From NCBI GenBank assembly GCA_017508875.1, contig JAFWQX010000066.1:1584-65583 (forward strand): a stretch of DNA of 64,000 nucleotides, read 5' to 3'. A program made the position numbers and the translations under genes. A model generated the notes under the pieces. The model did not search any database, was not told the origin of the DNA, and saw only the letters and a list, made by a program, of their open reading frames with translations. The stretch's first letter is position 1. Each line of letters begins with the position of its first letter. This document shows, in pieces, positions 1-40,570 of this stretch. This stretch comes from Clostridia bacterium (GTDB lineage: Bacteria; Bacillota; Clostridia; UBA1212; UBA1255).

Positions 1-1
1 T

Positions 2-211
2 TACACGCTTGGTGAGATTCCTGTACCGGGCTACGTGACCAAGATCAGCGACGACGAGTACATCATCGTCAATGACTACATCAAACCTGAGCCGCCTCAG
101 ACCGGCGACTACGACGTGCTTGCATTCGCAGGAATCGTAATGATCGCGCTTACCGGGCTGTTCGTGCTCAGAAAGAAAAAGAAGGTCAATGAAGAGGCAA
201 TGGCTGAATAA
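2..211 (+). CDS. 3' end of a cell-surface protein with sortase-type sorting signal (PPQTG motif, hydrophobic helix, RKKKK tail); partial
   Basis: In-frame translation ...EPPQTGDYDVLAFAGIVMIALTGLFVLRKKKKVNEEAMAE* ending at TAA 209-211; LPXTG-like motif + TM + basic tail architecture. Confidence 0.5.
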   Translation, partial: YTLGEIPVPGYVTKISDDEYIIVNDYIKPEPPQTGDYDVLAFAGIVMIALTGLFVLRKKKKVNEEAMAE

Positions 212-520: not shown

Positions 521-1264
521 TCAGCCTGCTTGTGAATATTCAGTCAAAACAGTGATAAATTCATGATTTGTCGGTCTTTTTGTAAATTTCGGAAAACATG
601 ATTTCCAGCCTCCGCTGTTCCAGGCAACAAAAGATATGAGCCGTATTGCACGTTCTACCGACGCCCCGGTCCTGCCGTATTTATCGGCAATGGCAGGGTA
701 GAGATTTTTCATCAGCAGCTGGTCTCCGTTTGAGTACCTGATAGCCATTACTGCGTCAAGAACGTATTTATATCCTGTATAGGAAGGGTAAACTTCGAGT
801 TTCAGGAGAATGTTTTTTACGTCATCGATAAATCGGCTTTTTTCGTCGTCGATCTTCATGCGTCTCGGGAGCGATTCGTATGTTCGCATCAGTTTATCCG
901 CGATCTGGTACGGCTCCAGATGACTGATAAACTGGTACATCACGTTTGCTTCCGAAAGCCTTCTTGCCGCGTATTCAGATATGACGTTCGATAAGATAAG
1001 GACGTCAGACAGGCCGCCGAGAGGGTGTTTGGTACGGTAGGTGACAATAGCATCTATCTGTCTGCGGTATTCTGTTTCGCTTTCTGACGGGCTCAATATG
1101 AGCAGGTCCGGGAACGAACAAGCTGCTATAGACATGCATTCGTCAATATCGGTCAATGTGGCTATGATACTGAATACTTCCGTGCGTTCTATTTCGCGTT
1201 TCAAAAGTATTCTGTAGAATTTTGAATCAATATTCTGATTAATCAAGACGATTACTTTGTACAT
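521..1264 (-). CDS. Spo0A-like transcription factor: Spo0A C-terminal DNA-binding domain with degenerate (pseudo) receiver domain
   Basis: C-terminal region ...GYKYVLDAVMAIRYS...LYPAIADKYGRTGASVERAIRLISFVAWNSGG...KRPTNHEFITVL matches Spo0A_C signature helices (Spo0A: [28 protein letters not shown]...KPTNSEFIA); N-terminal receiver lacks DD pocket and phospho-Asp; RBS AAAGGAGAAAAC upstream of ATG. Confidence 0.6.
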   Translation of the reverse strand: MYKVIVLINQNIDSKFYRILLKREIERTEVFSIIATLTDIDECMSIAACSFPDLLILSPSESETEYRRQIDAIVTYRTKHPLGGLSDVLILSNVISEYAARRLSEANVMYQFISHLEPYQIADKLMRTYESLPRRMKIDDEKSRFIDDVKNILLKLEVYPSYTGYKYVLDAVMAIRYSNGDQLLMKNLYPAIADKYGRTGASVERAIRLISFVAWNSGGWKSCFPKFTKRPTNHEFITVLTEYSQAG

Positions 1265-1397
1265 AATGTTTTCTCCTTTCTTTAGTAGTCAAAAGCAGCT
1301 GCTCTGCGAAATACGTTCCGATACTCTAATTCTACAACAATTCGCAAAAAAAGCAACATATTTCCGACTTTTCCGGATATTTCCGGATTTTTCCGAA

Positions 1398-1545: not shown

Positions 1546-1574
1546 TTGACAAGTTTCGTGCCCTGTATTATAAT
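1546..1574 (+). promoter_or_regulatory. Sigma-A type promoter: TTGACA -17- TATAAT
   Basis: TTGACA at 1546-1551, 17-bp spacer, TATAAT at 1569-1574, upstream of RHH gene. Confidence 0.5.
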
Positions 1575-1648: not shown

Positions 1649-2302
1649 ATGAAAAAAAGCCTTTACAGCCTGATGCTGATGGACGAAGTCGTAAACGAAG
1701 TTGACCGCCTCGCATTCAGACGCGGGACGAACCGGTCGAGCCTCATAAACCAGATACTCGCCGAATACTTGTCCATGGCAACGCCCGAAAAACGTATCGG
1801 GAACATCTTCCGGCACATAGAAAGCGCAATGAACCGCGACAGCGTCATTGTCCCGTTCATTGACGAAAACGCAGGTACGATGCTCCTGAAGAGCAGTCTT
1901 GAATACAAATACCGCCCCACGATCAAATACGAAGTGGAACTATATAAAATTCCGCGCGGCGCCATCGGCGAGCTTACGGTGATTTTCCGGACCCAGTCGG
2001 ACAGCCTTATCAACGGCGTAAACAGCTTCCTGCGGCTCTGGATGAACCTTGAAGAGCACTACCTTGGCAAATATTTTCCGGAGCAGCCCACGGATTACAA
2101 GGCAGGCGACGGTAAATTCATCCGGGCCATCCATCTGCGCACCGACCGCGACTACAGCGACGAATCCGTAGGAGAAGCGATATCGGCCTACATACGGAAT
2201 TTCGACGAGCTCATCAAAGGCTATCTTGCGGGCACGTACAAAGCCGCAGAAGTCGAGCGCAGATACGTTGACGCCCTGAACAGGGGGATCGGAATACTAT
2301 AA
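1649..2302 (+). CDS. Ribbon-helix-helix (CopG/Arc-like) domain protein with C-terminal domain of unknown function
   Basis: N-terminus MKKSLYSLMLMDEVVNEVDRLAFRRGTNRSSLINQIL fits RHH beta-strand + two helices; start ambiguous (ATG 1637 directly abuts GGAG, ATG 1649 chosen). Confidence 0.5.
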   Translation: MKKSLYSLMLMDEVVNEVDRLAFRRGTNRSSLINQILAEYLSMATPEKRIGNIFRHIESAMNRDSVIVPFIDENAGTMLLKSSLEYKYRPTIKYEVELYKIPRGAIGELTVIFRTQSDSLINGVNSFLRLWMNLEEHYLGKYFPEQPTDYKAGDGKFIRAIHLRTDRDYSDESVGEAISAYIRNFDELIKGYLAGTYKAAEVERRYVDALNRGIGIL

Positions 2303-2375: not shown

Positions 2376-4979
2376 ATGAATGCAGATAAATTTACAAAAA
2401 AATCGATGGAGGCGCTGACGACGGCGCAGAACATCGCGACAGAAAACGATAACCAGCAGATAACCCAGGAACACCTGCTTTACGCGCTGATCGACCAGGA
2501 CGGCGGGCTCATAGGCAGCCTGCTGAAATCGATCGGCGTTGACAACGACCGCATGCTTAGCGAGCTCGACGGCCTGATCAGGGCTTTGCCGAAAGTGACG
2601 GGAAGCGGCAGGGAACCGGATAAAATATATATTGCCCCCGATACGGATAAGGCGCTCTCGCTCGCCCAGACGATCGCGGAAAAAGCGAAGGACGAGTACG
2701 TTTCAGTCGAACATATTATGCTCGGCATCATCGAGCGGCCCTCGGAAAACATATCAAAACTGCTGAAAAAATACGGAATCGACCGCTCCGGATTCGTAAA
2801 AGCGCTCGAAAACGTTAAAAACGGCCGGATCACGAGCGACGACCCCGAGAGCACGTACGATGCGCTGAAAAAGTACGGCACCGACCTGGTCGAACGCGCA
2901 AGAGCACAGAAACTTGACCCCGTGATCGGCAGGGACAATGAGATCCGTAACGTCATCCGCATCCTGTCGCGTAAGACGAAAAACAACCCTGTACTGATCG
3001 GCGAACCGGGCGTGGGCAAGACGGCTATTGCCGAAGGCCTGGCGCAGAGGATCGTTGCCGGCGACGTGCCGGAGGGGCTTAAAAACAAAACGATCATCTC
3101 GCTCGACATGGGCGCGTTGATCGCCGGCGCGAAGTACCGCGGTGAATTTGAGGAAAGGCTCAAAGCGGTGCTGGAGGAAGTGCGGAAATCGGAAGGCCGC
3201 GTGATACTGTTTATTGATGAACTCCACACGATCGTCGGTGCGGGAAAGACGGACGGTGCGATGGACGCCGGAAACCTCTTAAAGCCCATGCTTGCGAGGG
3301 GCGAGCTTCACTGCATAGGCGCGACGACGCTCGACGAGTACAGGAAGTACATCGAGAAGGACGCGGCGCTCGAGCGAAGGTTCCAGCAGGTGCTGGTAGA
3401 CGAACCCACCGTCGAAGACACGATATCGATCTTAAGAGGGCTGAAGGAAAAATACGAGATATTCCACGGCGTAAAAATACACGACGGAGCACTTGTCGCC
3501 GCCGCAACACTTTCACACAGGTACATAACAGACCGGTTCCTGCCGGATAAAGCAATTGACCTCGTCGACGAAGCCTGCGCGATGATCCGCACGGAGATCG
3601 ACTCGATGCCTCAGGAACTTGACGACCTGCGCAGAAAGATCATGCAGCTCGAGATCGAAGAGACCGCGCTTAAGAAAGAAACGGATAAGCTTTCACAGGA
3701 GCGGCTCGAGGCACTGCGTTCTGAACTGGCCGAATCCAAGGACAAATTCAACGCCATGAAAGCGGACTGGGAGGCCGAAAAGCAGGACATTGACAGCGTA
3801 AAGAGCATAAAAGAGGAGATCGACGCGGTCAACGGCGAGATCGAAGCGGCGTCAAGGAATTATGAGTACGAAGTGGCCGCCAAACTCCGCTACGGAAAAC
3901 TGCCCGAACTCACAGCCAAACTTGCCGAAGCCGAAAAGCGCAGCGAGCAGTCTGCGGGCGACGTGAAGCTTGTCCGCAACACCGTGACCGCAGATGAGAT
4001 CGCCGGCATCGTTGCGCGCTGGACGGGTATACCGGTGGCGAAGCTGATGGAAGGCGAGCGCGAAAAAGTGCTCCATCTGGACGAAATACTGCATAAGCGT
4101 GTGATCGGTCAGGACGAGGCGGTGCAGAAGGTCAGCGAGGCCATACTGCGGTCAAGGGCCGGTATTTCGGATCCCAACAGACCCATCGGTTCGTTCATGT
4201 TCTTAGGACCTACGGGCGTAGGTAAAACGGAGCTCGCAAAAGCGCTCGCGGAGGCACTGTTCGACGATGAGCACAATATCGTCAGGATCGATATGAGCGA
4301 ATATATGGAGAAGTTCAGCGTGTCAAGGCTCGTGGGTGCGCCTCCCGGATACGTCGGATACGACGAGGGCGGCCAGCTTACGGAGGCCGTAAGGCGCAAA
4401 CCGTACTCGGTGGTACTGTTCGACGAGATCGAAAAGGCACATCCGGACGTCTTTAACATACTGCTGCAGGTGCTTGACGACGGACGTATAACCGATTCCC
4501 AGGGCAGGACGGTAGATTTCAAAAACACGATCATAATTATGACGAGCAACCTCGGCTCCGATTTCCTGCTGGAAGGCATCGGTCCGGACGGCGAGATTTC
4601 CGAGGAGGCCAGAAACAGCGTAAGCGCACTGCTCTCGAGAACGTTCAGACCGGAGTTCCTGAACAGGCTCGACGAGATCGTGTATTACAAACCGCTTACC
4701 AAGGACGATATAGGCAGGATCATTCAGCTGCTGATCGCGTCGCTGAGAAACAGGCTAAAGGAGAAGTCGCTCGATCTCGAGATCACACCGGCGGCTGTTG
4801 AAAAGATAATTGAAGAGGGGTATGATCCGCTTTACGGAGCAAGGCCGCTCAAACGGTATCTGCAGGCAAAAGTCGAGACGGTCATCGCGAGGGCAATGCT
4901 GTCAGGCGATTTCGGCATGGGGGACACGATCGTTGTTGACACCGGCGAAAACGGCGGGTTCACAACGAAGCGAAAATAA
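2376..4979 (+). CDS. clpB: ATP-dependent chaperone ClpB (two AAA+ modules with coiled-coil middle domain)
   Basis: 867 aa; Walker A GEPGVGKT and GPTGVGKT; Clp N-domain; long coiled-coil between NBD1 and NBD2; strong RBS GGAGGG. Confidence 0.95.
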
Positions 4980-23970: not shown

Positions 23971-24046
<76 letters not shown>

Positions 24047-24049
24047 AAA

Positions 24050-24085
24050 AAGCAAGGCATCCGTCAGGGTGCCTTGTTTTTTTGG
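24050..24085 (+). terminator. Rho-independent terminator after tRNA-fMet
   Basis: gcaaggcatccgtcagggtgccttg + TTTTTTTGG. Confidence 0.7.
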
Positions 24086-24113
24086 TGGGGAAGAAAAGTC
24101 TGGCAGGGAAGGT

Positions 24114-24236
24114 CCGGGTTATGAGCACGACGAGCGGGCACCGCAAAGGGCGCGAAGCGATAACCCGGAGGTCGTTGGTTCAAATCCTTCCCCCGCAGCC
24201 ATACCACTTTAGCACTTTAATGTGGTAAATTTTCAC
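24114..24236. repeat. Degenerate tRNA-fMet remnant: inverted copy of anticodon arm (24114-24135) followed by direct copy of tRNA 3' half (24160-24197) and conserved tail; att-like scar
   Basis: ataacccggaggtcgttggttcaaatccttcccccgca duplicated exactly from 24003-24044; tail cataccactttagcactttaatgtggtaaattttcac recurs at 26425, 27875(partial), 30851. Confidence 0.65.
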
Positions 24237-24337
24237 TTTAGTGCTTGTGTTTTTTCTTTTTTAATCAAAAAGGTATTGACATCCTATATTTCATTTAATA
24301 TAATGGTTTCACCGATTCGGTGAAAGGATGGATTTCA

Positions 24338-25402
24338 ATGAAACAAGGCTTGACTGATTTGCAGTACGAACAACTTGCCAAAGAAGCTTTTACAAAGCTA
24401 ATGAGCAGTATCCCTTTCGTATCAGATATTGAAATAATAAAAACTGGGTTGCAACGCGGGTTTGGTGACTTTCGCGCTGTCGTTCACTTTACGGATTCAA
24501 AAGCAGTTCAGGATTTTTACGTAGAGGTTAAATCCAACGGTGAGAAGCGGTACGCTAATATCTTTTGCATGGAAGCAAAACAGCACATCGATGATTTATG
24601 CTACTTGTTTATGGCACCTTATGTATCGGAATCAACATCTGAATATCTGCGTGAAAACAATCTGAGTTTTTTGGATTTAAGTGGTAATTGTTTTATTTTG
24701 ACAAGACGAATGATAATTCATGTTAGCGGAAAACCGAATCAGTTCATTGAGAAACGAGAAAAGAAGAACTATTTATCAAAGTCGTCTTCGGCAGCTTCTG
24801 CGGTTATCAGAACGATGCTGAATGATCCGGATAAATGGTGGAAAGTCAAAGAATTGTCTGAGGTTTCGAAGAAAGCTATCGGAACTGTTTCGAACGTAAA
24901 AGTTTTTCTGACAGAAAAAGATTGGATTGACGACCATATTTATCAATTCCGTTTAAAAAATTTCAAGGAGCTACTTTATGTATGGAGCAAAGACTATCAT
25001 AAAAAAAAATCAATAACAAAGGAATATTATTCTTTGTTTTCTTTGCCAGAACTTGAGACAGAAATATCAAAATGGAGCAAAACGCATGACCGCAATGCCG
25101 TACTTGGCGGTTTTTCCGCCGCGGCAAGATATGTGCCAACTGTTCGGTATAACAAGATCAACGTTTATGTTGCAGAAGAAGGATTGTACGAATTTGAAAA
25201 AGATCTTGCTTTGACGCCGGTTAGTTCGGGAGGAAATATTGTTGTGACGATCCCTCATGACGATACTCCATGTATGTTCAATCAGGAAATCAATGATTCT
25301 ATAGTTTCATCACCGGCACAAACCGTTATTGATTTACTTGGAATGCCAAACCGCGGAGAAGAGGCCGCCGAAGCGATCATATCTAAATACTATAGGAGGT
25401 AG
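24338..25402 (+). CDS. Hypothetical protein, possible AbiEi-like partner of downstream nucleotidyltransferase
   Basis: Low-GC gene directly upstream (5-bp gap) of AbiEii-like gene; no recognizable motif; assignment by gene context only. Confidence 0.35.
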   Translation: MKQGLTDLQYEQLAKEAFTKLMSSIPFVSDIEIIKTGLQRGFGDFRAVVHFTDSKAVQDFYVEVKSNGEKRYANIFCMEAKQHIDDLCYLFMAPYVSESTSEYLRENNLSFLDLSGNCFILTRRMIIHVSGKPNQFIEKREKKNYLSKSSSAASAVIRTMLNDPDKWWKVKELSEVSKKAIGTVSNVKVFLTEKDWIDDHIYQFRLKNFKELLYVWSKDYHKKKSITKEYYSLFSLPELETEISKWSKTHDRNAVLGGFSAAARYVPTVRYNKINVYVAEEGLYEFEKDLALTPVSSGGNIVVTIPHDDTPCMFNQEINDSIVSSPAQTVIDLLGMPNRGEEAAEAIISKYYRR

Positions 25403-25407
25403 TCAAA

Positions 25408-26247
25408 ATGGATAAGAATGATAATTTGAAAAAATCGACAGATTATTCTCAAGGTCAAAAAGATGCCGCCTATTCCGTACTTGGCGAAATTGTTAACTTA
25501 CTTGCCGATTATTCTGACAATTTACGTATTATCGGAGGATGGGTTCCAACTCTTTTGTATCCGGACAAAGAGCATATCGGATCAATAGACGTTGACGTTT
25601 TGCTGAATCAGCAAAAGATCCAAAAAGCCCAAGGGTATGAGAATATCAGACGAATTCTGACCAGAAACGGTTATACAAAACATCCTGATAAGTACTTTTC
25701 TTTCGTTAAAACCGTGAGTATTCAAGGGGTTGACTATTCTGTCGATGTTGACTTCCTTTCAGGGAAATACGGAGGAGACGGAGGAAATATCAGTAAACAC
25801 GTAGACGGAATCAAAACTCTTCCTGCTACCGCGGGGAACTTTGCGTTTGAGTTTCAGCCGCAAAAAGTCAAAATCGAGTATCAACGTCCGGACGGTGCAA
25901 AAGATTTTGGAAACGTCAGCGTGATTTCCGTCATTCCGTATATAGTTATGAAAACCGACGCACTTGGCAGAGGAAAGCCAAAAGATGCATACGATATTTA
26001 CTGTACAATCACATCATACCCCGGTGGTATCATAGCCCTGGCTAAAGAATTTCTGCCATACTCAAAAAAGAAGCTCATCCAAGAAATGTGCGAAAAACTC
26101 AAAGAAAAATTTGCATCGCCGGATCATGCCGGCCCAACCGATATAGTAGCTTTTTTGGACATTTCAGATGAAGATGAGATCCTGAGAATAAAGCAGGATG
26201 CGTATCAGCGCGTCAAATATCTGATAGATATTTTAGACAAAGAGTAA
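25408..26247 (+). CDS. Nucleotidyltransferase of AbiEii/AbiGii (DUF1814) toxin family
   Basis: RIIGGWVPTLLYPDKEHIGSIDVDVLL = GS-x(n)-D-x-D minimal NTase motif in AbiEii-like context; ~280 aa; strong RBS AGGAGG. Confidence 0.55.
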   Translation: MDKNDNLKKSTDYSQGQKDAAYSVLGEIVNLLADYSDNLRIIGGWVPTLLYPDKEHIGSIDVDVLLNQQKIQKAQGYENIRRILTRNGYTKHPDKYFSFVKTVSIQGVDYSVDVDFLSGKYGGDGGNISKHVDGIKTLPATAGNFAFEFQPQKVKIEYQRPDGAKDFGNVSVISVIPYIVMKTDALGRGKPKDAYDIYCTITSYPGGIIALAKEFLPYSKKKLIQEMCEKLKEKFASPDHAGPTDIVAFLDISDEDEILRIKQDAYQRVKYLIDILDKE

Positions 26248-26339
26248 TCAAAACAGAAAAGTGAACTCCTCCCTTGCGATACCATTGTACCGCGAAGGAG
26301 GAGTTCTGTAAAATGTGCGATTTCAGGCTTGGTCGGTCA

Positions 26340-26470
26340 GCAGATAAGCGGATGAAAATGCGCGCAGGGGCCGTAAATACTTGATTTTATTGTGGTATGG
26401 TCAAATCCGTTATCTCCACTCGGACCATACCGCTTTAGTGCTTTAAAGTGATGAATTTTCAGTTGGGATA
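26340..26470. repeat. Island cassette-boundary repeat, copy 1 (mini-ORF MRAGAVNT 26358-26384 + hairpin 26394-26431 + conserved tail)
   Basis: Aligns with copies at 27790-27900 and 30768-30895 and with tRNA-fMet 3' end/flank. Confidence 0.65.
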
Positions 26471-26579
26471 GAAGACAATGCAGACCTGAATCTTTACTTT
26501 TTTGTAAATTGGAGCGAATCATCTTTACTTTTCCGCTTTCTTGTGTTATAATAAGTAAAGATGAAAGTGAGGTCACACT

Positions 26580-27494
26580 ATGTTTTCATATAAAGGGTTG
26601 GAACAAAAACTGAAAGAGCGGGGAATTGGACGTTCTGATCTGACAAAACTGTTAGGGCTTTCTTCGCGGACGGTCGCAAAGGTAGGCAAAGGCGAGAAGC
26701 TTTCGCGCGGGGTTATGGAAAAACTTGCAGATTTCTTTGGGTGTTCTCCCGAAGAATTGTGCAGGGAGGTTTCGGACAATCCAATTCTGCAAATGCTGCG
26801 GGAAGAAAAAGAGGCGAAAATTTCCGGAGGGCTTTATCACGAGCTGCAGGTGCGTATGACCTACAACTCCAACCACATCGAAGGAAGTAGGCTCACGGAA
26901 GATCAGACACGATTGATTTTCGAAACGAACACGCTGAACGTCGGAGACGGCGTTCCGGTGGACGACATTTTGGAGACGGTGCATCATTTCCGCGCCATTG
27001 ACTACGTCATCGATTCGGCGGATCAAGTTCTTACCGAAGACATCATCAAGGAACTGCATTATATCCTCAAGCACGATACCAAGGATTCAACGCTTGATTG
27101 GTTCGCGGTAGGTGATTATAAAAAACGTCCGAACGTGGTTGGCGGTCGGGAGACGGCAAAACCGAAGGATGTACCGGTGCAGATGAAAAAGTTGCTTGAC
27201 GAATATAACGCGAAGCAGGATATAACGGTCAACGATATCATCGCTTTCCACGCCGAATTTGAAAAGATCCATCCTTTCCAGGATGGCAACGGTCGCGTCG
27301 GCAGACTTATCGCGCTGAAAGAATGTCTGCGGTTCTGTATCGTGCCGTTCCTCATCGAAGACAGCAAAAAGATGTTTTACTATAGAGGCCTGTCAGAGTG
27401 GGATAACGAAAAAGGCTGGCTCACCGACACCTGTCTTGATGGTCAGGATACATTCAGAAAATTGCTTGAAATGTTTGAAATAGAACTGGACTGA
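26580..27494 (+). CDS. Fic-family protein with N-terminal XRE-type HTH
   Basis: Fic motif HPFQDGNGRVGR; N-terminal LGLSSRTVAKVGKGEK HTH. Confidence 0.85.
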   Translation: MFSYKGLEQKLKERGIGRSDLTKLLGLSSRTVAKVGKGEKLSRGVMEKLADFFGCSPEELCREVSDNPILQMLREEKEAKISGGLYHELQVRMTYNSNHIEGSRLTEDQTRLIFETNTLNVGDGVPVDDILETVHHFRAIDYVIDSADQVLTEDIIKELHYILKHDTKDSTLDWFAVGDYKKRPNVVGGRETAKPKDVPVQMKKLLDEYNAKQDITVNDIIAFHAEFEKIHPFQDGNGRVGRLIALKECLRFCIVPFLIEDSKKMFYYRGLSEWDNEKGWLTDTCLDGQDTFRKLLEMFEIELD

Positions 27495-27789
27495 GAAGGC
27501 AATGTTTAGTCAAAAACAAAAAAGTTAAACCCAAAAACAATCAATTCTATATATTAGTAACAATTTGAAAGCAAGCAGGAAAAACAGCAACATTAGTGTT
27601 ATCAAACTTTTATGTAATGATGCAAATTATATTTTGAGGGAAAGAGCAAAAGGCCTTAGGAAACTTTAAGCGATAACGTAAATCTAAAAGAATGGCAGCC
27701 CTATGATTGAGAGCTGTCATTCTTTATTCTATCTTAGTATACTGTTTTCAAAACGTTTGGCATGGTGGTTCCTCTTATGTTTTTGTTAA

Positions 27790-27900
27790 TGATCCATGGA
27801 GGAAAAATGCGCGCAGGTGCCGTAAACACTTAGTTTTATTTGTGGTTTGGTCAAATCCGTTATCTCCACTCAGACCAAATCTTTGTAGCCACAAATCCAG
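27790..27900. repeat. Island cassette-boundary repeat, copy 2 (mini-ORF 27807-27833, hairpin 27844-27881)
   Basis: Same element; hairpin stem carries compensatory changes relative to copy 1 (tat/ata -> ttt/aaa). Confidence 0.65.
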
Positions 27901-27931
27901 TGCTTGGGTATTTGATCAAAGCCTTGAAAAC

Positions 27932-29080
27932 CTAATCCTCGTCATACGTTATTTCATAATGCAGTTGGAACGCTCCGGCAAGGTATCTGCGGCGGAGGTC
28001 GCTGTTTATCCATTCGATATTCTTTTGAAAAACGCTGCTGCCGCCGTTCCATTCGACCAGCTCGTCATGCCGCGGATCTTTCTTGTCTTGGAGAATACGG
28101 ATCAACTCTGAGAATCCTCCCGGGCCGCCGCAGTCCTCCGGTGGTGCGTCGCCTTTCAACTCCGTACATACCGGGGCGGGTAGATCAGCGTCTTCAATTA
28201 TCTCGACAAGCCGAATCTCGTGAGTCCACCCGTCGCCGAAATCATATTCGTAAGAAATGCGGTCGGTCTTAGAAAAGACCTCCTCAAGCGTGATCTCCCG
28301 CTCGTCAACGATTTCGCACCCGCGTGCGCCGTATATGTCATCATCTTCCGGAGACGGTATTCTTGCTAACTGTATCGGACGGCCACTTTTTGACCGCTTC
28401 AGGATAAACTCATGCAAGTGGTAATCTTTCCACAAAAACAAATTCTGAATGATATCGTGCAGATAGAATAGCGAAAAGTTCATAGGTACCGTAACGCATC
28501 TGAGGCAAGGCGTTTCAAGCTCAAGTGATATGTCAAAAACGCCGGCACGGGTACTGTAGAGCTTGCCATATTTTTCTTTAAGCGCACGTTCTTGCTCTTC
28601 GTAGGTTGCGTAGACGTCCTTTTTGTCGGAGGTGAACCTGAGATCATCATTGATCATAGGAAGCAGAACCGTTTGAAAACGATCGTCGGGTTCAAAACAG
28701 TTTTCGTAGCGTTCAATTCTTTGGCAGAACTTGTTTAATCTTGCAACGGAAGACCTATCGCCTGTTTTACACAAGCTTGCCGGGAAACAGCAATCGGCGA
28801 TATAGCGGTCGATCACCTCTTGGGAGATGCTTTCCGATGCGAGCATATTCCGTAATCCTGCCTCCAACAGTTCTTGCAACTTCTTTTTATCGCCTGCCGT
28901 GATCCCGTACAGCAGGAAACCGCATCCCGTCGAATCATTGGCGATCACAATGCACTTTCTGCGATTCATCACGATAAGATTTGCGGAAAAAGCAAAAAGT
29001 GGATCAATTCCTTTTGTGGCCTGTTCCGGAGATATGCCTAAATAATCAATCAGTTTTTTTGTGCATCCGATTTGTATCAT
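27932..29080 (-). CDS. pRiA4b ORF-3-like family protein (PRiA4_ORF3 domain) with N-terminal uncharacterized domain
   Basis: YEYDFGDGWTHEIRLVEI matches YxYDFGDxWxH signature; RBS AGAAAGGAAAGG. Confidence 0.65.
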   Translation of the reverse strand: MIQIGCTKKLIDYLGISPEQATKGIDPLFAFSANLIVMNRRKCIVIANDSTGCGFLLYGITAGDKKKLQELLEAGLRNMLASESISQEVIDRYIADCCFPASLCKTGDRSSVARLNKFCQRIERYENCFEPDDRFQTVLLPMINDDLRFTSDKKDVYATYEEQERALKEKYGKLYSTRAGVFDISLELETPCLRCVTVPMNFSLFYLHDIIQNLFLWKDYHLHEFILKRSKSGRPIQLARIPSPEDDDIYGARGCEIVDEREITLEEVFSKTDRISYEYDFGDGWTHEIRLVEIIEDADLPAPVCTELKGDAPPEDCGGPGGFSELIRILQDKKDPRHDELVEWNGGSSVFQKNIEWINSDLRRRYLAGAFQLHYEITYDED

Positions 29081-29118
29081 AATTGCCTTTCCTTTCTAAG
29101 ACTTAACAAAATCTCAGA

Positions 29119-30630
29119 TCAATGTTCAACTCTGTAAAACTTTTGATACTTGCTCTTAGGTTTCTCCGGTATCGTCATCGCGAGTTTGCCCGCGACGACA
29201 AGCGGTCTCAGGTATTTTGTAACAACGTAATACGGCGTTTGGATGTTCAGCATTGAGGCGATCTCTTCCTTGCTTTTCGGCTCTGTGCAAAAAGTAAGTA
29301 TCCGTTCTTCGACGGTGACGGATGGACTGCCGGGAACGATCGACGTTTCCTTTTTTGAAAACAGCGTCGCCTTGAAAATGCCTCTGTAGTTTTCAAACAG
29401 CGGCTCGGGAAGCCCGGCTTTCCTCATTGCTTCACGAATCGTCGGAATACCGGAAAAACGGTTTTCGGTATCGATCATGACTTCGAGATTGCTTGCGATA
29501 AACGGGTTTCTTGTGTCTCCCGGGACTTTTCCGAGATCGTTGATCGTCAGGCGTCCGTAAAGCCCGCCAGGATTTTCTACCACAAGTCTGTCGCGGAAAA
29601 GGATCACTCTGACAGGGGAGCCCTCGGTATGAACGCTGTAATCTCGGTGGATCAGAGCGTTCAGGATCAATTCGCGGACGGCGACGAGCGGATATTCCGG
29701 CTTATCGGTCCTGCGACCGTTTTCATCCACAACAACGGCGGTTTTTATGTTTCGCCTTACAAAGTTCATTGCGCCTTCCAGCATCTCCGGTATCGTTCCG
29801 TCAAAGCGCTTGTTGTCGATAAAGCGTTCTCCGGACGCTCCGAGGTCGCCAATCTCATATCCGTCTACGACCATAGCGGTGATACCGAGCTGGGGGAAAA
29901 ACGCTTGGGGATAATCGCCGACAAGCATCAGCCCGGCGACGGTAGGCTTGCCGTTATCCGTGAGCCCTTGAAGTTTCATGATTCTGAGATCATCCTGATT
30001 TGCGAGCTGCGGCTTTTCCGTTTTTAGCTTTGCAAAATACAAACTCAGTTTTTCGCGGCTGAGATCATCCGTTTCCGCGCGGTCCACGATTCGCAGCTCG
30101 TCGCGGATCTTCTTTTTATAGACTTCGTAACTGTAGATTTCATATTCGGTCATCGGCATATCCGCGTCGCCTACGCGAACATAAGAGCCGCGGATCCTGC
30201 CGGCTGGCTTATAGAAGCAAGGTTTATTTTCGGGCTCGCACTCCGGTATTTCGGCGCTTACGACCACTTTTCCTTCGTATTCGGCAACCGTAAAAAACGG
30301 GCGAACGACCGGTTCCATCTGCTCCGCGGCGTTTTTGACCTGGACCTGCAGATCCTGCGCGTCATATACGCCCGTAACCTCATACCCAGCCTTTTCATCA
30401 ACGCCGAAAATGATCGTACCGCCGTCATTCTGGTTGGAAAAGCTTGACAGAGTATCGTAAAGCTTTTTAGACGTGCCGCCCAACGCCTTTTTGACTTCCA
30501 CATACTGTTTTTCGCATTTCTGACGCTTCAGAGCGTCTATCAGTTCTATCAGATCTTTCTCTGTCAATGCTGTTGCTCCTTTCGTTATCACAATCTTATT
30601 ATAGTGTTTTTCAAAACGATTGTCAAACAT
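29119..30630 (-). CDS. Schlafen-like AlbA_2 DNA-binding domain + HATPase_c_4 (RecG-C-terminal-like) putative regulator
   Basis: N-terminal AlbA_2-like block (IVITKGATALTEKDLIELID..., FGVDEKAGYEVTGV), C-terminal NALIHRDYS GHKL-like motif. Confidence 0.7.
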   Translation of the reverse strand: MFDNRFEKHYNKIVITKGATALTEKDLIELIDALKRQKCEKQYVEVKKALGGTSKKLYDTLSSFSNQNDGGTIIFGVDEKAGYEVTGVYDAQDLQVQVKNAAEQMEPVVRPFFTVAEYEGKVVVSAEIPECEPENKPCFYKPAGRIRGSYVRVGDADMPMTEYEIYSYEVYKKKIRDELRIVDRAETDDLSREKLSLYFAKLKTEKPQLANQDDLRIMKLQGLTDNGKPTVAGLMLVGDYPQAFFPQLGITAMVVDGYEIGDLGASGERFIDNKRFDGTIPEMLEGAMNFVRRNIKTAVVVDENGRRTDKPEYPLVAVRELILNALIHRDYSVHTEGSPVRVILFRDRLVVENPGGLYGRLTINDLGKVPGDTRNPFIASNLEVMIDTENRFSGIPTIREAMRKAGLPEPLFENYRGIFKATLFSKKETSIVPGSPSVTVEERILTFCTEPKSKEEIASMLNIQTPYYVVTKYLRPLVVAGKLAMTIPEKPKSKYQKFYRVEH

Positions 30631-37217: not shown

Positions 37218-39356
37218 ATGCCCGAAAAAAGTGTAAGAGAGATGAATAAATACGAGAGGCTGCGTTATTCGCTCGCTTCCCGTACGTTCCATACTGCGAT
37301 AGGCGGAGCTGCGATCCTGGGGATCGTTGCCCTGGTCATCGGCCTCGGATGGTACGCTTATTCATACTCGAGCCAGCTTATCAAAGGAGCGTTCGGCGTT
37401 TCGAAGAACGCCCAGATGATAATATCGAAAATCATCGATCCGACCGATCTGGGGCGCGACGTGATGGATCTGTACAGATTGGTTCCTGAAGAAACCCGCG
37501 GTGACGGGGATGACGCGGAATACCTTTCACTGTACGACTCGTTTAAAACGCGGGAGGATTACGTACAGATATTGTCGATCCTTAAAGATTTTCGCGATTC
37601 CAGCACTGTCAGCGACGTGTACTACGCTATGTACGACGAAGAAACGGGTATGCTGGTATATTTTGCGGATCCGGACGAAGACGAAGACACTGTATGCCCT
37701 ACGGGCTTTTTTGAGACCGCCACGAAGAAAGAACTCAATACGTTCCTTCGCTGGAACGGCAAAAAAACGCCTTATTATATAGAAAAGACCGAAAGATACG
37801 GCTGGATCTGCACGACCGGAATAAGTGTAAAGGATCAGGACGGAAGCATTGCCGGATTCATACTCGCGGACGTAACGCTAAAAGAAGTGGGAAGCGGAAT
37901 GCTCAGGTTCCTGCTCCAGTACGGAATATCGATGTTCGTACTCATAAATCTTGTCGCGATATTCATGACGCGCCACATGAAGAAAAAGCTGGTAAAGCCC
38001 ATAAACGAGATCGCTGAGGCTGCCGAAGCGTATCTGAAAGATAAGAAAGACGGCGCAAGGGTGACGGATCATTTCTCGAAACTCAATATAAATACGGGTG
38101 ACGAAGTTGAGAATCTTGCCCTTATTATGGCAGATATGGAAACCGACCTGGCGGATTACGAGGACGATCTTACCAGAGTTGCCGCGGAAAAAGAGCGCAT
38201 CAGCATCGAACTTTCGCTCGCGACAAGGATCCAGGCGGATATGCTGCCGAATATTTTCCCCGCATTTCCTGAAAGAAGCGAGTTTGACGTGTTTGCGTCA
38301 ATGAAACCCGCGAAAGAAGTTGGCGGCGATTTTTACGACTTCTTCCTTATTGACGAAGACCACCTCGGACTCGTAATGGCTGACGTATCGGGGAAAGGTG
38401 TCCCCGCGGCGCTGTTTATGATGGTATCGAAGATACTTGTCCAGAACATAGCGATGTCAGGTAAAAGCCCGGCGGAGGTCATTAAGACTATCAACGCTCA
38501 GATCTGCGCCAATAACCGCGAAGAAATGTTCGTGACGGTGTGGTTCGGAGTGCTGGACGTTCGCGACGGCACGCTTAGGGCGGTCAATGCGGGCCATGAA
38601 TATCCGATGCTTAAGAAGCCCGGCGGCGACTTCGAACTGGTAAAAGACACACACGGATTCGTTGTGGGCGGATTCGCATCTTCAAAATACAAAGAATATG
38701 AACTGAAGCTTGAACCCGGTGCGAAGCTGTTTTTGTATACCGACGGAGTTACGGAAGCGTCTAACGAAGATTCCGTGCTTTTCGGAACGGGGCGAACGCT
38801 CGAAGTGCTGAATAAAAATAAAAATGAGGAGCCGGAGAAGGTCGTTCAGAGTGTAAACAATGCGATCTCTGAGTTTTGCGGAAGCGCTCCGCAGTTCGAT
38901 GATATTACGCTTATGTGTCTCGAGTATTTCGGGAAAGGGAACACGGAAATGAAGGAAATTACTGTCGAAGCCAAAATTGAAAATATCCCTGAAGTCACTG
39001 ATTTTGTCAACGGCGAACTTGAGAAACTTGAGTGTTCACTTAAGGCGCAGATGCAGATAGACGTGGCGATAGACGAAATGTTCGGCAACATTGCCCGCTA
39101 CGCATACGGCGGGGGCGCGGGAAACGCGACAGTTCAGATTCGCGCAAAGAAAGAACCCAAAGCGGTGGAACTGACGTTTATTGACGGCGGCACCCCGTAC
39201 GATCCTCTGAAGAAAGACGATCCGGATATCTCTCTCGGAGCTGACGAGAGGGAAGTCGGAGGGCTCGGGATCTTCCTGGTCAAAAAAACGATGGATGATA
39301 TGAAATACGAATATAAAGACGGGCAGAACAGACTTACGGTAACCAAATTGCTGTGA
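37218..39356 (+). CDS. Membrane sensor - PP2C (SpoIIE/RsbU-type) phosphatase - HATPase_c (RsbW/SpoIIAB-type kinase) fusion protein
   Basis: Two TM segments flanking ~180-aa extracytoplasmic domain; PP2C motifs GGDFYDFF, DVSGKGVPAALFM, TDGVTEA; C-terminal GHKL region VELTFIDGG...GGLGIFLVKK. Confidence 0.8.
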   Translation: MPEKSVREMNKYERLRYSLASRTFHTAIGGAAILGIVALVIGLGWYAYSYSSQLIKGAFGVSKNAQMIISKIIDPTDLGRDVMDLYRLVPEETRGDGDDAEYLSLYDSFKTREDYVQILSILKDFRDSSTVSDVYYAMYDEETGMLVYFADPDEDEDTVCPTGFFETATKKELNTFLRWNGKKTPYYIEKTERYGWICTTGISVKDQDGSIAGFILADVTLKEVGSGMLRFLLQYGISMFVLINLVAIFMTRHMKKKLVKPINEIAEAAEAYLKDKKDGARVTDHFSKLNINTGDEVENLALIMADMETDLADYEDDLTRVAAEKERISIELSLATRIQADMLPNIFPAFPERSEFDVFASMKPAKEVGGDFYDFFLIDEDHLGLVMADVSGKGVPAALFMMVSKILVQNIAMSGKSPAEVIKTINAQICANNREEMFVTVWFGVLDVRDGTLRAVNAGHEYPMLKKPGGDFELVKDTHGFVVGGFASSKYKEYELKLEPGAKLFLYTDGVTEASNEDSVLFGTGRTLEVLNKNKNEEPEKVVQSVNNAISEFCGSAPQFDDITLMCLEYFGKGNTEMKEITVEAKIENIPEVTDFVNGELEKLECSLKAQMQIDVAIDEMFGNIARYAYGGGAGNATVQIRAKKEPKAVELTFIDGGTPYDPLKKDDPDISLGADEREVGGLGIFLVKKTMDDMKYEYKDGQNRLTVTKLL

Positions 39357-39397
39357 CCTGCACAAGCTGCACTTCAAATAAAAAGGAGACAGAAGAT

Positions 39398-40570
39398 ATG
39401 AAATATAAAGAAAACGGCAGTGAATTGACAATAAATTTTGAGGGGCACATTGATTCCGCAAACGCGAAGGAGATAGAAGACGAGATCAGCGCCATAAAGG
39501 CAAAGGCACACCCGGAAAAACTTGTCATTGACTGCGAGAATCTTCAGTATATATCAAGCGCCGGACTCAGGATAGTTCTGCGCCTGATGAAAGAGATCAA
39601 ACCTATTTCTATCGTCAACGTCTCTTCCGAGGTTTACGAGATATTCGATATGACCGGTTTTACGGAGATGGCGGAGGTGCACAAAGCGTACAGAAAAGTG
39701 TCCGTCGACGGCTGCGAAATTATCGGAAAAGGTGCGAACGGAACCGTGTACAGAATTGACCGCGACACGATCGTAAAGGTCTACGTGAACCCGGATTCGC
39801 TGCCGGAAATCCAGCGCGAACGCGAGCTTGCCCGAAAAGCATTCGTGCTCGGTATCCCGACCGCTATACCGTACGACGTTGTCCGCGTAGGCGAAGGCTA
39901 CGGTTCGGTTTTTGAACTGCTCAGCGCAAAAAGCCTCGCTGAGATCCTCTCCAAAGATCCCGGCCAGTTCGACAGCGTACTTAAATACAGCGTGGATCTG
40001 CTCAAAACGATCCATTCGAAAGAACTTCCGAAAGGCGAGATGCCTGACTGCAAAGCCACGGTGCTGGGATGGGTGGAATTTCTGAAAGACTACCTTCCGG
40101 AAGCGCAATATAAAAAACTCAAGGCGCTCGTGGAGGCTGTCCCCGAGGATAACCATATTATGCACGGCGATTATCATATGAAAAACGTCATGCTGCAGGA
40201 CGGAGAAGCGCTGCTGATAGATATGGACACGCTGTGCCTCGGCCACCCGGTGTTCGAATTCGGCTCGATTTTTAATTCGTATATCGGATATTCTGAACTC
40301 GATACGGAAAACGTCAGAAAATTCCTCGGCATTCCTTTTGAAACCGCGAAACAGATATGGGACAGGACGGTGCGTATGTATTTCGGAACCGACGACGAGG
40401 CATTCATTCAGGCGGTAAAGGACAAGGCGAAGGTCGTAGGTTATACGAGAGTTATGCGCCGCGCGATTCGCCGCGGGTCAATGGACGATCCCGCCACGCT
40501 TGCTGTCGTCAATAACTGCAGAAAGCATTTTGACGAACTGCTTGCGCGCCTTGACACACTTGAATTCTGA
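39398..40570 (+). CDS. STAS domain fused to aminoglycoside-phosphotransferase/choline-kinase-like (protein-kinase fold) domain
   Basis: N-terminal STAS (LQYISSAGLRIVLRL); kinase-like Gly loop GKGANGTVY, Lys in VKVY, catalytic HGDYHMKNVML, IDMDT metal-binding loop. Confidence 0.7.
   Translation: MKYKENGSELTINFEGHIDSANAKEIEDEISAIKAKAHPEKLVIDCENLQYISSAGLRIVLRLMKEIKPISIVNVSSEVYEIFDMTGFTEMAEVHKAYRKVSVDGCEIIGKGANGTVYRIDRDTIVKVYVNPDSLPEIQRERELARKAFVLGIPTAIPYDVVRVGEGYGSVFELLSAKSLAEILSKDPGQFDSVLKYSVDLLKTIHSKELPKGEMPDCKATVLGWVEFLKDYLPEAQYKKLKALVEAVPEDNHIMHGDYHMKNVMLQDGEALLIDMDTLCLGHPVFEFGSIFNSYIGYSELDTENVRKFLGIPFETAKQIWDRTVRMYFGTDDEAFIQAVKDKAKVVGYTRVMRRAIRRGSMDDPATLAVVNNCRKHFDELLARLDTLEF

Follow-up and report, generated by a model that had tools for sequence, protein, structure and literature searches.

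A Spo0A-like protein with a pseudo-receiver domain, probably an atypical response regulator, in uncultured rumen and gut Clostridia

Introduction

In Firmicutes, Spo0A is the textbook example of a developmental switch under phosphorelay control. The window analyzed in this study (the whole 64-kb stretch of Clostridia bacterium DNA) carries on its minus strand, at positions 521 to 1264, an ATG-initiated coding sequence for a 247-amino-acid atypical response regulator of the Spo0A family, which a preliminary description had presented as a Spo0A paralog with an inactive receiver domain. The locus raises the question of whether such a protein is a maintained regulator or a relic, and of how its activity might be governed if the phosphorylation site is indeed absent. 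The features given in that description are all present, far beyond chance expectation, and the sequence strings on which it relied, VLINQNIDS (N9-Q10-N11) and PDLLILSPSESE (S58), were both recovered within the open reading frame.

Results

Identity of the Spo0A-like protein

The 247-amino-acid product is identical to GenBank entry MBR6934470.1, annotated as [quoted passage not shown] Pairwise sequence alignments show it to be homologous to Spo0A from end to end: BLASTP against a canonical Spo0A (P0004) aligned residues 21 to 245, with LLILS positioned opposite VLVLD, a tblastn match obtained with P0047 spans residues 7 to 251 of the latter, and many of the matches to canonical Spo0A proteins extend from approximately residue 12 to 25 up to residue 241. 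As judged by profile score, the protein is clearly not an ortholog-grade Spo0A, since the NCBIfam equivalog model TIGR02875 returned 50.7 bits (cutoff, 200) and matched residues 109 to 241 only. No canonical spo0A was found within the 64-kb window, and scans of the genome contigs with the single protein and with a three-sequence alignment returned no confirmed relative. The protein may be a second copy beside a canonical spo0A, as the term paralog in the preliminary description implies, or the sole Spo0A-like gene of its lineage. Searches against viral structures and PHROG families matched only the C-terminal part of the protein, and a phage origin is unsupported.

A true Spo0A_C domain makes up the C-terminal half

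The assignment of the C-terminal region to the Spo0A DNA-binding domain was borne out by several comparisons. Residues 149 to 243, encoded at positions 536 to 820 of the minus strand, matched Pfam Spo0A_C (PF08769) with an E value of 2.7e-18 and a score of 66.3 bits (cutoff, 25), covering profile positions 1 to 103 of 104, and matches were also obtained to the Spo0A C-domains of known structure, 1fc3 (E = 5e-8) and 1lq1 (E = 2e-7). The C-domain modeled with AlphaFold2 (AF2) superimposed on these two structures in Foldseek with TM scores of 0.74 to 0.81 and rmsd values of 2.1 to 2.4 Å at 30 to 32% identity. The recognition-helix motif S-V-E204-R205-A-I-R208 (E-R-x-x-R) is kept, with E204 and R208 being among the nearly invariant columns of a 58-sequence alignment. 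The equivalent of the αE/σA-activating region is 7 to 8 residues shorter in phmmer alignments than that of Bacillus subtilis or Geobacillus stearothermophilus Spo0A-C, its modeled helix (residues 218 to 223) comprises 6 residues only, and the shortened region bears a family motif of its own, W-K-x-x-F-P-x-F.

The N-terminal half retains a receiver fold without its phosphorylation pocket

The same clarity does not extend to the N-terminal domain (residues 1 to 130; positions 875 to 1264, minus strand) at the level of profile searches, where Response_reg (PF00072) gave no match to residues 1 to 130 even at an E value of ≤1. Structure prediction was more informative: the AF2 model (mean pLDDT, 91.3; approximately 80 to 96 across residues 1 to 130) has the (βα)5 topology of a receiver, composed of β1 (residues 2 to 8), α1 (15 to 27), β2 (31 to 37), α2 (40 to 50), β3 (54 to 58), α3 (63 to 79), β4 (87 to 91), α4 (97 to 105), β5 (109 to 113), and α5 (118 to 130), while the arrangement of the two domains relative to one another is uncertain in this model (pTM, 0.62). 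In Foldseek, the N-domain matched the receivers of CheB, DesR, CheY, and Spo0A-N with TM scores of 0.63 to 0.73 (0.72 for Spo0A-N, 1qmp), and when the N-domains of the family were compared with the receivers of Spo0A in hhalign, the probability was 95.2% (E = 2.9e-8).

The phosphorylation residues of B. subtilis Spo0A (D10, D11, D56, T84, and K106) were mapped onto the protein by BLASTP, MAFFT, hhalign, and the β-strand ends in the AF2 model. Four of the five catalytic positions are replaced, the acidic DD pair by N9/Q10, the acceptor aspartate by S58, and the lysine by S113, and the exchange of the threonine for S92 is the sole conservative change; the hhalign placement puts S58 on the acceptor aspartate, S92 on the S/T position, and S113 on the lysine. 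The claim that the receiver-like domain is devoid of phosphorylation residues consequently stands, with the qualification that the threonine is conservatively substituted. Neither observation named in the preliminary description as contrary to it was made: no alignment put an aspartate at the phospho-acceptor position, and the match to Spo0A_C is significant. The N-terminal half is shown, on the predicted structure, to retain the receiver fold while the Mg2+/phosphoryl pocket (N9, Q10, S58, and S113) is gone. The domain further carries a 6-residue acidic insertion (PSESETE) after β3, and its best-conserved part across the family is the α4-β5 segment, ISEYAARRLS(D/E)AN.MYQF (ISEYAARRLSDAN.MYQF), which together with NQ and QIDAI makes up the N-domain family motifs.

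A small family under purifying selection

The family is small, with approximately five clusters among 1.84 billion representatives, all of them from gut or rumen metagenomes, and a metagenome scan added two loci only: the product of L012 is identical to the present protein, and that of L013 is 46% identical. The acidic pocket is missing in every member: N-Q/S is found at the position of the DD pair, S, T, R, K, or E at that of the acceptor, and S, V, R, or G at that of the lysine. In a comparison with an 87%-identical ortholog, the dN/dS ratio was 0.117 for the whole gene, 0.106 in the N-domain, and 0.104 in the C-domain, and at least five lineages have intact reading frames of approximately 247 to 255 amino acids, with identities as low as 32%. 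Purifying selection maintains both domains across a small clade of Clostridia from rumen and gut that have not been cultured. Because the ratio is approximately 0.10 in both domains, a pseudogene reading was rejected.

The order surface protein/Spo0A-like protein/RHH protein/ClpB is kept in L007, L009, and L013, whose Spo0A-like proteins are 87% or 46% identical to the present one. Rates of change differ across this neighborhood: the Spo0A-like protein is 46% identical where the RHH protein is 81% and ClpB 87% identical, and its dN of 0.063 compares with 0.012 for the RHH gene and 0.031 for clpB. Faster evolution than that of the neighboring genes is compatible with a relaxed or shifting function.

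The intergenic region and the divergent neighbor

Upstream of the Spo0A-like gene, a putative promoter was located on the minus strand at positions 1329 to 1356, consisting of a −35 element, TTGCTT (1351 to 1356), and a −10 element, TAGAAT (1329 to 1334), separated by a 16-nt spacer; in the alignment, the −10 element reads TAAAAT in L013 and TACAAT in L009. This promoter was read from the sequence and the alignment, and a simple promoter scan did not report it. The box CGTTCCGAT (1314 to 1322) precedes the start codon by approximately 45 to 50 nt, which places it on or close to the predicted start of transcription, and is intact in the window and in L001, L007, L008, and L013, the variant of L009 being TATTCCGAT.

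Just upstream of the inferred −35 element lie 3.9 copies of a 10-bp phased direct repeat, ATATTTCCGG (1358 to 1395, plus strand), and a second set of 10-bp direct repeats, CGTTCCGCCT, is present in 3.2 copies with 100% matches at positions 1484 to 1515 of the plus strand. The counterpart of the first array has 5.6 copies in L007, and in the more distant loci the repeats are only weakly conserved, with 2 copies in L013 and a degenerate array in L009. L012 has three tandem-pair matches versus four in the other same-species loci, consistent with one repeat fewer. Tandem TTCCG-N5-TTCCG pairs (four observed versus 0.43 expected) are confined to this intergenic region within the window, and a regulon search with the same pattern found no sites elsewhere in the window. 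Read as a 7-bp TTTCCGR box followed by a 3-bp spacer, the repeats would share the geometry of tandem 0A boxes, with a different sequence. The canonical 0A box TGTCGAA does not occur in positions 1265 to 1636, and its frequency in the window is at chance level (9 observed versus 12.2 expected); autoregulation through canonical 0A boxes is accordingly unsupported.

The large perfect hairpin noted previously does exist, as an inverted repeat at positions 1400 to 1490 with 26-nt arms (1400 to 1425 and 1465 to 1490) that are 100% complementary, a 39-nt loop, a fold-energy z-score of −7.0, and an arm sequence found nowhere else in the window. Its value as meaningful context did not survive comparison, as it proved to be a species-specific insertion of approximately 75 nt into the repeat array that is absent from L007, L008, L009, and L013. 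Because both divergent promoters lie downstream of it and the orthologous loci do not have it, it was rejected as a regulatory element or terminator, and it was also rejected as a known RNA, with Rfam returning for positions 200 to 2400 nothing but subthreshold matches to hairpins of the miRNA precursor type.

On the opposite side of the region, a perfect consensus sigma-70 promoter, TTGACA-17-TATAAT (1546 to 1574, plus strand), which is kept in L007, L009, and L013, is predicted to serve the RHH-like gene and probably clpB. The divergent reading frame of the preliminary description is present at positions 1649 to 2302 of the plus strand (open reading frame, 1637/1649 to 2302) and encodes a 217-amino-acid protein with an N-terminal RHH-like motif. 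Its designation as an RHH protein is less secure, the RHH_1 match reaching 17.4 bits (gathering score, 20.5) and matches to BrnA, MazE, and PHROG CopG-like proteins having E values of 0.004 to 0.03, while several close homologs (52 to 54% identity) carry a precomputed PF01402 match. The RHH-like family comprises 3003 clusters and is found in other lineages directly upstream of ClpB/ClpC-like genes without a Spo0A-like neighbor. On this distribution, a role as dedicated partner was rejected; the neighbor belongs to a widespread RHH-ClpB pair and offers little meaningful context, and it is probably adjacent to the Spo0A-like gene without being functionally connected to it.

Discussion

Proposed function

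We propose that the product of the gene is an orphan member of the Spo0A family of response regulators, atypical in having an aspartate-less pseudo-receiver, an explanation that we hold to be probable, if not firmly established. From the replaced residues, the protein would be unable to undergo aspartyl-phosphorylation and would bind DNA as a transcription factor whose action does not depend on phosphorylation. The pseudo-receiver may have been kept as a protein-protein module, its most likely role being constitutive dimerization via the strongly conserved α4-β5 face, with partner docking as a possible alternative. Activity would be set mainly by the amount of protein, or by a partner or ligand, rather than by a kinase.

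Spo0A contacts sigma-A through the αE segment. Because this segment is shortened and several neighbors of the recognition helix differ, the target sequence of the present protein and its effect on RNA polymerase are probably unlike those of canonical Spo0A. The 10-bp phased TTTCCGR array just in front of the gene's putative promoter is a candidate target, and binding there would amount to autoregulation; the array could also be a minisatellite or bent DNA instead of an operator. A more ambitious version of this proposal, to which we give little credence at present, is that the Spo0A_C domain of this family has gained a new DNA specificity and forms a phosphorylation-independent head-to-tail oligomer on the TTTCCGR repeats of its own promoter, the pseudo-receiver with its acidic insertion representing a permanently "on" dimerization module. 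If true, a rumen bacterium that is probably nonsporulating would possess a rewired circuit of the Spo0A type that needs no kinase, and where the protein occurs together with canonical Spo0A it might act as an antagonist of the latter.

Alternative explanations

The protein might instead counteract the canonical sporulation pathway, as a decoy or antagonist that coexists with a normal Spo0A and damps sporulation, or Spo0A-dependent genes, independently of phosphorylation, whether by occupying 0A-type boxes without activation (owing to its short αE), by titrating Spo0A kinases or phosphotransfer partners with its pseudo-receiver, or by forming inactive heterodimers. Retention of the ERAIR motif while the σA-activating region loses 7 to 8 residues, and conservation of the pseudo-receiver as strong as that of the DNA-binding domain, are both in keeping with such a role. 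There is precedent in Clostridiales, in which Spo0A paralogs exist, with two copies in 10 genomes and three in one (bioRxiv 10.1101/2022.02.25.481979), and in phage-borne, receiver-less Spo0A_C genes, which are proposed to manipulate sporulation and are thought to be phosphorylation independent (PMC10294663). Set against this are the absence of any recognized sporulation-specific gene among the window open reading frames scanned with Pfam and the identity of only 11 to 23% between the N-domain and other Spo0A-type receivers, which argues against retained partner specificity, and we consider a decoy function unlikely.

A second possibility is that the pseudo-receiver is switched by an input other than aspartyl-phosphorylation, namely, phosphorylation on Ser/Thr (S58/T58), binding of a small molecule, or an acidic insertion (S-E-S-E) that serves as an intramolecular phosphomimic and locks the protein "on." The residue at the acceptor site is serine or threonine in the query, P0001, P0002, and L013, an acidic residue (E61 and its neighbors) is kept in the 6-residue insertion in most members, and examples of other aspartate-less receivers with Glu substitutions or under ligand or Ser/Thr control have been documented (PMC4395418; PMC12632262). 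However, other members have R, K, or E at this site, so that no single acceptor-site chemistry is conserved in the family, and no kinase or ligand-pathway gene adjoins the Spo0A-like gene; we regard a switch of this kind as rather unlikely.

Degeneration of the lineage's own spo0A after the loss of sporulation, en route to a pseudogene without a specific function, would be in line with the faster divergence described above, with the loss of all catalytic residues except the threonine, and with the highly degraded spo0A genes described in non-spore-formers such as Macrococcus. This reading is largely refuted by the dN/dS ratios of both domains, and the constant-length intact frames, the family-specific conserved motifs in the N- and C-domains, the high confidence with which the fold is predicted, and the absence of spoIVB-type synteny around the gene, whose flanks are a surface protein gene and RHH-clpB, leave it very improbable. 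Least credible of all is a functional pair in which the Spo0A-like and RHH proteins jointly control clpB via the shared intergenic region and its hairpin, as the conserved divergent gene order and a repeat array between the two promoters are outweighed by the disparity of 3003 RHH clusters to approximately five Spo0A-like ones, the unrelated genes upstream of RHH and ClpB/ClpC-like genes in other lineages, the absence of the hairpin from all other species examined, and the very different rates at which the two genes evolve.

Significance and comparison with known systems

A selected, apparently nonphosphorylatable Spo0A-type protein would mean that Clostridia of the gut and rumen have recruited the Spo0A_C effector domain for regulation without a kinase, and it adds a Spo0A-family case to a growing list of pseudo-receivers whose activation mechanisms are mostly obscure. 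In practical terms, proteins of this type and the many other noncanonical Spo0A_C proteins found in the searches can be misidentified as spo0A in genome-based scoring of the potential to sporulate. The significance of the finding is otherwise modest, the family being tiny, uncultured, and uncharacterized.

The orphan regulator proposed here shares with Spo0A (TIGR02875; 1qmp, 1fc3, and 1lq1) its layout of receiver fold, linker, and Spo0A_C domain, as well as the E-R-x-x-R motif. It differs in the replacement of the DD pair, the acceptor aspartate, and the lysine, in the 6-residue insertion after β3, in an αE region that is shorter by 7 to 8 residues, in its short linker, in lacking a spoIVB-type neighborhood, and in being restricted to a few uncultured gut and rumen lineages.

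[quoted passage not shown] The present N-domain fits this class in its (βα)5 topology and in the replacement of four of the five conserved residues. It also falls within the subset of aspartate-less receivers (ALRs), having S58 at the acceptor position where its relatives have T, R, K, S, or E (PMC4395418). A literature search found no characterized Spo0A-type pseudo-receiver protein, and "Spo0A" has zero occurrences in the review of Bourret et al. of 2025 (PMC12632262). Maule et al. counted 7 ALRs among 391 Response_reg~Spo0A_C proteins in 2015 (PMC4395418); unlike those, the present receiver is too diverged to be recognized by PF00072, and therefore it would not have been counted in that census.

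Other noncanonical Spo0A_C proteins offer a further point of reference. Short (~235- to 246-amino-acid) metagenomic Spo0A-like regulators and phage or tandem Spo0A_C proteins share the Spo0A_C domain at 35 to 42% identity, and many of these noncanonical proteins also share the shortened version of αE, W..FP..(K/R)RPTN. Several are without the acceptor aspartate (E, S, N, T, or G), whereas most of the short regulators retain the acceptor D and the K, unlike the present family, whose N-domain is 11 to 23% identical to that of any other noncanonical Spo0A_C protein. The phage and stand-alone Spo0A_C forms have no N-domain, in contrast to the 130-residue folded N-domain under selection here. Aspartate-less receivers fused to Spo0A_C had already been counted in 2015, and the present gene is a further "atypical" response regulator.

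Gene and domain content of the Spo0A-like protein

The Spo0A-like gene, located at positions 521 to 1264 on the minus strand, encodes a 247-amino-acid product in which the strings VLINQNIDS and PDLLILSPSESE, quoted in the preliminary description, were both located. An identical protein is deposited as GenBank MBR6934470.1 ([quoted passage not shown]) and is present in samples under ENA, Logan, and JGI metagenome accessions, whose record names (XIEF21-1...) point to a ruminant gut catalogue. Residues 149 to 243 clearly match the Pfam Spo0A_C model (E = 2.7e-18; 66.3 bits versus a cutoff of 25) across profile positions 1 to 103 of 104, as anticipated from the sequence, and among proteins of solved structure, significant sequence matches are limited to two C-terminal domains of Spo0A, 1fc3 (E = 5e-8) and 1lq1 (E = 2e-7). 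The Pfam search returned no Response_reg match in the protein, even at E ≤ 1, while the NCBIfam Spo0A equivalog TIGR02875 matched residues 109 to 241 only, scoring 50.7 bits where the curated cutoff is 200. Orthology to Spo0A is therefore rejected, since the protein falls short of the equivalog score and has no canonical receiver.

The N-terminal domain is a pseudo-receiver

Alignment to canonical Spo0A (P0004) by BLASTP covered residues 21 to 245 at 26% identity and placed LLILS58 opposite VLVLD. The AlphaFold2 model, generated from a 58-sequence alignment (mean pLDDT, 91.3), contains β1 (residues 2 to 8), α1 (15 to 27), β2 (31 to 37), α2 (40 to 50), β3 (54 to 58), α3 (63 to 79), β4 (87 to 91), α4 (97 to 105), β5 (109 to 113), and α5 (118 to 130), followed by six helices; its N-terminal half resembles the receiver domains of CheB, DesR, CheY, and Spo0A (1qmp) with TM scores of 0.63 to 0.73 (Foldseek against PDB). 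Profile-profile comparison of the family N-domains with canonical Spo0A receivers (95.2% probability, E = 2.9e-8) positioned S58 at the acceptor Asp, S92 at the T/S position, and S113 at the Lys, and identified a six-residue insertion, PSESET, after β3, while the acidic DD pair is replaced by N9-Q10 in the MAFFT alignment. Four of the five catalytic residues have thus been lost and the remaining position is a conservative Ser; therefore, by published definition, the N-domain is a pseudo-receiver (PMC12632262), more precisely an aspartate-less receiver (PMC4395418). The earlier claim of a receiver-like domain devoid of phosphorylation residues is borne out both by the modelled fold and by the alignment, in which DD, acceptor Asp, and Lys are missing and Thr is substituted by S92.

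The C-terminal domain retains the recognition motif

The C-terminal half of the model superimposes on Spo0A-C with TM scores of 0.74 to 0.81 and an rmsd of 2.1 to 2.4 Å at 30 to 32% identity (Foldseek against PDB). The recognition-helix motif S-V-E204-R205-A-I-R208 is kept, with E204 and R208 nearly invariant across the 58-sequence alignment; in the 1LQ1 complex, the bases of the 0A box, which is the Spo0A DNA target, are contacted by the equivalent Glu and Arg. The stretch beyond the recognition helix, which in Spo0A is the sigma-A-contacting helix αE, is 7 to 8 residues shorter than in Bacillus Spo0A and bears the family motif W-K-x-x-F-P-x-F, a similar short W..FP form being present in many other noncanonical Spo0A_C proteins. 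No consensus 0A box was detected in the intergenic region adjoining the gene, and the count across the window was at the level expected by chance.

A small family under purifying selection

HMMER, run exhaustively against 1.84 billion representatives, yielded 1475 proteins at E ≤ 1e-3, nearly all by virtue of Spo0A_C; only five representatives have the same N-domain, namely, P0007 (46% identity), P0008 (36%), and P0009, P0010, and P0011 (34%). Orthologues with 99% and 87% identity came in addition from a word-indexed search. The DD site is N-Q or N-S in every family member, while the Lys position is occupied by S, V, R, or G. As the acceptor position varies among S, T, R, K, and E, the family conserves no alternative chemistry at this site.

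The two domains are about equally conserved (N- versus C-domain identities of 47 versus 51%, 36 versus 40%, and 32 versus 40%), and the N-domain bears the family motifs NQ, QIDAI, and ISEYAARRLSDAN.MYQF, the last lying on α4-β5. Comparison with the 87%-identical orthologue gave a Nei-Gojobori dN/dS of 0.117 overall (N-domain, 0.106; C-domain, 0.104), and the gene is therefore functional and not decaying. It is nevertheless the fastest evolving of the genes compared (dN of 0.063 versus 0.012 for the adjacent ribbon-helix-helix [RHH]-like gene and 0.031 for clpB), and comparison with a more distant genome gave 46% identity for the Spo0A-like protein versus 81% for the RHH-like protein and 87% for the ClpB N terminus.

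Genomic neighbourhood

The Spo0A-like gene is monocistronic, and its 3′ end faces that of a convergent, large surface-protein gene (window positions 1 to 211, plus strand). The C terminus of the surface protein carries a PQTGD motif resembling a sorting signal, then a hydrophobic helix and a basic tail. The surface protein, also encoded at the related metagenome loci L013 (2588 to 3976) and L001 (11054 to 14326), is very large (over 1090 amino acids) and repetitive. The divergent neighbour (1649 to 2302, plus strand) encodes a 217-amino-acid protein with an RHH-like N terminus and is followed by clpB (2376 to 4979, plus strand). The divergent arrangement described previously was confirmed. The RHH matches are subthreshold, though some homologues carry PF01402.

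The order of surface protein, Spo0A-like, RHH-like, and clpB genes is kept in L007, encoding the 87%-identical protein, and in L009 and L013 (both 46%). However, the RHH-like family is very large (3003 clusters) and tightly conserved (about 216 amino acids, more than 50% identity), and its genes lie directly upstream of ClpB/ClpC-like genes in unrelated contexts without a Spo0A-like neighbour; the adjacency is, therefore, a trait of the small Spo0A-like clade rather than of the RHH family. The latter is unannotated, and at L019, a locus from another lineage, the RHH-like gene is followed by a ClpB/ClpC-like and then a radA-like gene. CtsR occupies the first position of the Firmicute operon ctsR-clpC-radA. 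Based on this correspondence and its position directly upstream of ClpB/ClpC-like genes, the RHH-like protein is a candidate uncharacterised chaperone-operon regulator.

Elsewhere in the window, tRNA-Met (23971 to 24046) is adjoined by genes of a defence or mobile-islet type (23971 to 30630), specifying an AbiEi_2 antitoxin-like protein, Fic with a Cro/C1 HTH, PRiA4_ORF3/DUF6933, and Schlafen AlbA_2 with HATPase_c_4. Positions 37218 to 40570 hold an unusual partner-switching module, in which a PP2C (SpoIIE-domain) phosphatase is fused to a HATPase_c_2 anti-sigma-like kinase domain; after this fusion comes a second, of a STAS with an APH-type phosphotransferase domain. The module is no sign of sporulation.

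Intergenic hairpin, promoters, and repeat array

The large perfect hairpin reported previously was recovered, with 26-nt arms (1400 to 1425 and 1465 to 1490) and a 39-nt loop; the z-score of its fold energy is -7. The hairpin, which occurs once in the window, interrupts a repeat array as an insertion of about 75 nt. It may have arisen by local inverted duplication or may be a small mobile element of palindromic type. Since it lies upstream of both divergent promoters and is absent from the orthologous loci of three other species (L007, L008, L009, and L013), a role as conserved operator or terminator was ruled out. The Spo0A_C domain and dead receiver of the preliminary description hold, the name paralog is provisional, and the hairpin and RHH-like gene are incidental context.

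The RHH/clpB promoter (plus strand) is a perfect TTGACA-17-TATAAT that recurs in orthologous loci; the putative promoter of the Spo0A-like gene, as read from the sequence, is TTGCTT-16-TAGAAT, with a -10 element of TAAAAT in L013 and TACAAT in L009. A CGTTCCGAT box near the inferred transcription start of the Spo0A-like gene recurs at orthologous loci, with the variant TATTCCGAT in L009. Between the divergent promoters, 10-bp phased direct repeats with the core TTTCCGR occupy positions 1358 to 1395 and 1484 to 1515 (3.9 and 3.2 copies), with 5.6 copies in L007 (2614 to 2669), 2 in L013, and a degenerate array in L009. TTCCG-N5-TTCCG tandem pairs are confined to this spot within the 64 kb (4 observed versus 0.43 expected); L012, encoding the identical protein, has one fewer (3 versus 4). 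Spo0A-C binds tandem 0A boxes head to tail, as 7-bp boxes with 3-bp spacers in direct repeat. Given the matching geometry, the array is a candidate site for the Spo0A-like protein to bind, although a minisatellite or bent DNA would fit equally well.

Proposed mode of action

Spo0A-family homology spans both domains, of which the receiver-like N-domain lacks the phosphorylation pocket and the DNA-binding domain keeps the recognition motif, and both are under purifying selection. It is proposed that the protein would bind DNA without Asp phosphorylation and that the pseudo-receiver may have been retained as a dimerisation or partner-binding module. Pseudo-receivers usually dimerise through the α4-β5 face (PMC12632262), which is conserved here. 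The amount of protein, possibly under autoregulation via the repeat array, or else a partner or ligand would determine activity.

That the protein acts as a decoy for, or antagonises, a canonical Spo0A in the same cell is considered unlikely, and control via the acidic insertion, a ligand, or phosphorylation on Ser/Thr slightly more so. Decay of the lineage's own spo0A is improbable in view of the dN/dS values, and a dedicated partnership of the Spo0A-like and RHH-like proteins is the least probable, being disfavoured by the distribution data. A Spo0A-type circuit that has been rewired to a new DNA specificity and runs without a kinase, or alternatively an antagonist role, is suggested only tentatively and seems doubtful.

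Comparison with known systems

The searches also retrieved metagenomic chains of 428 to 959 amino acids with three to five tandem Spo0A_C domains (P0012, P0013, P0015, P0016, and P0018) and many stand-alone Spo0A_C proteins of 100 to 180 amino acids, together constituting a large, mostly undescribed effector-domain radiation. A further class of short Spo0A-like regulators (about 231 to 246 amino acids; P0022, P0023, P0026, P0034, P0042, P0097, and others) universally keeps the Lys and mostly the acceptor Asp (Glu in two). Substitutions of the second acidic residue are common in this class (ADPSEE, ADCSED, and similar), and the shortened W..FP..RPTN tail of the query family is present in most of its members. 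With N-Q at the DD site but D and K intact, P0097 may represent an intermediate stage in evolution.

Spo0A paralogues are known in Clostridiales, with two copies in 10 genomes and three in Anaerostipes hadrus (bioRxiv 10.1101/2022.02.25.481979), and phages carry receiver-less Spo0A_C genes (PMC10294663). Aspartate-less receivers accounted for 7 of 391 Response_reg~Spo0A_C proteins in the study of Maule et al. (2015; PMC4395418); in our sample, which is biased toward the query, about 15 full-length Spo0A-like matches outside the family have E, S, N, T, or G in place of the acceptor Asp. The 2025 review of pseudo-receivers (PMC12632262) includes none of the Spo0A type and mentions Spo0A zero times, and no characterised example was found in the literature searched. 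The 247-amino-acid protein falls within the definition of atypical response regulators and works like one, and it is a strongly diverged, lineage-restricted pseudo-receiver response regulator with a Spo0A_C output, a kind of protein that is already known.
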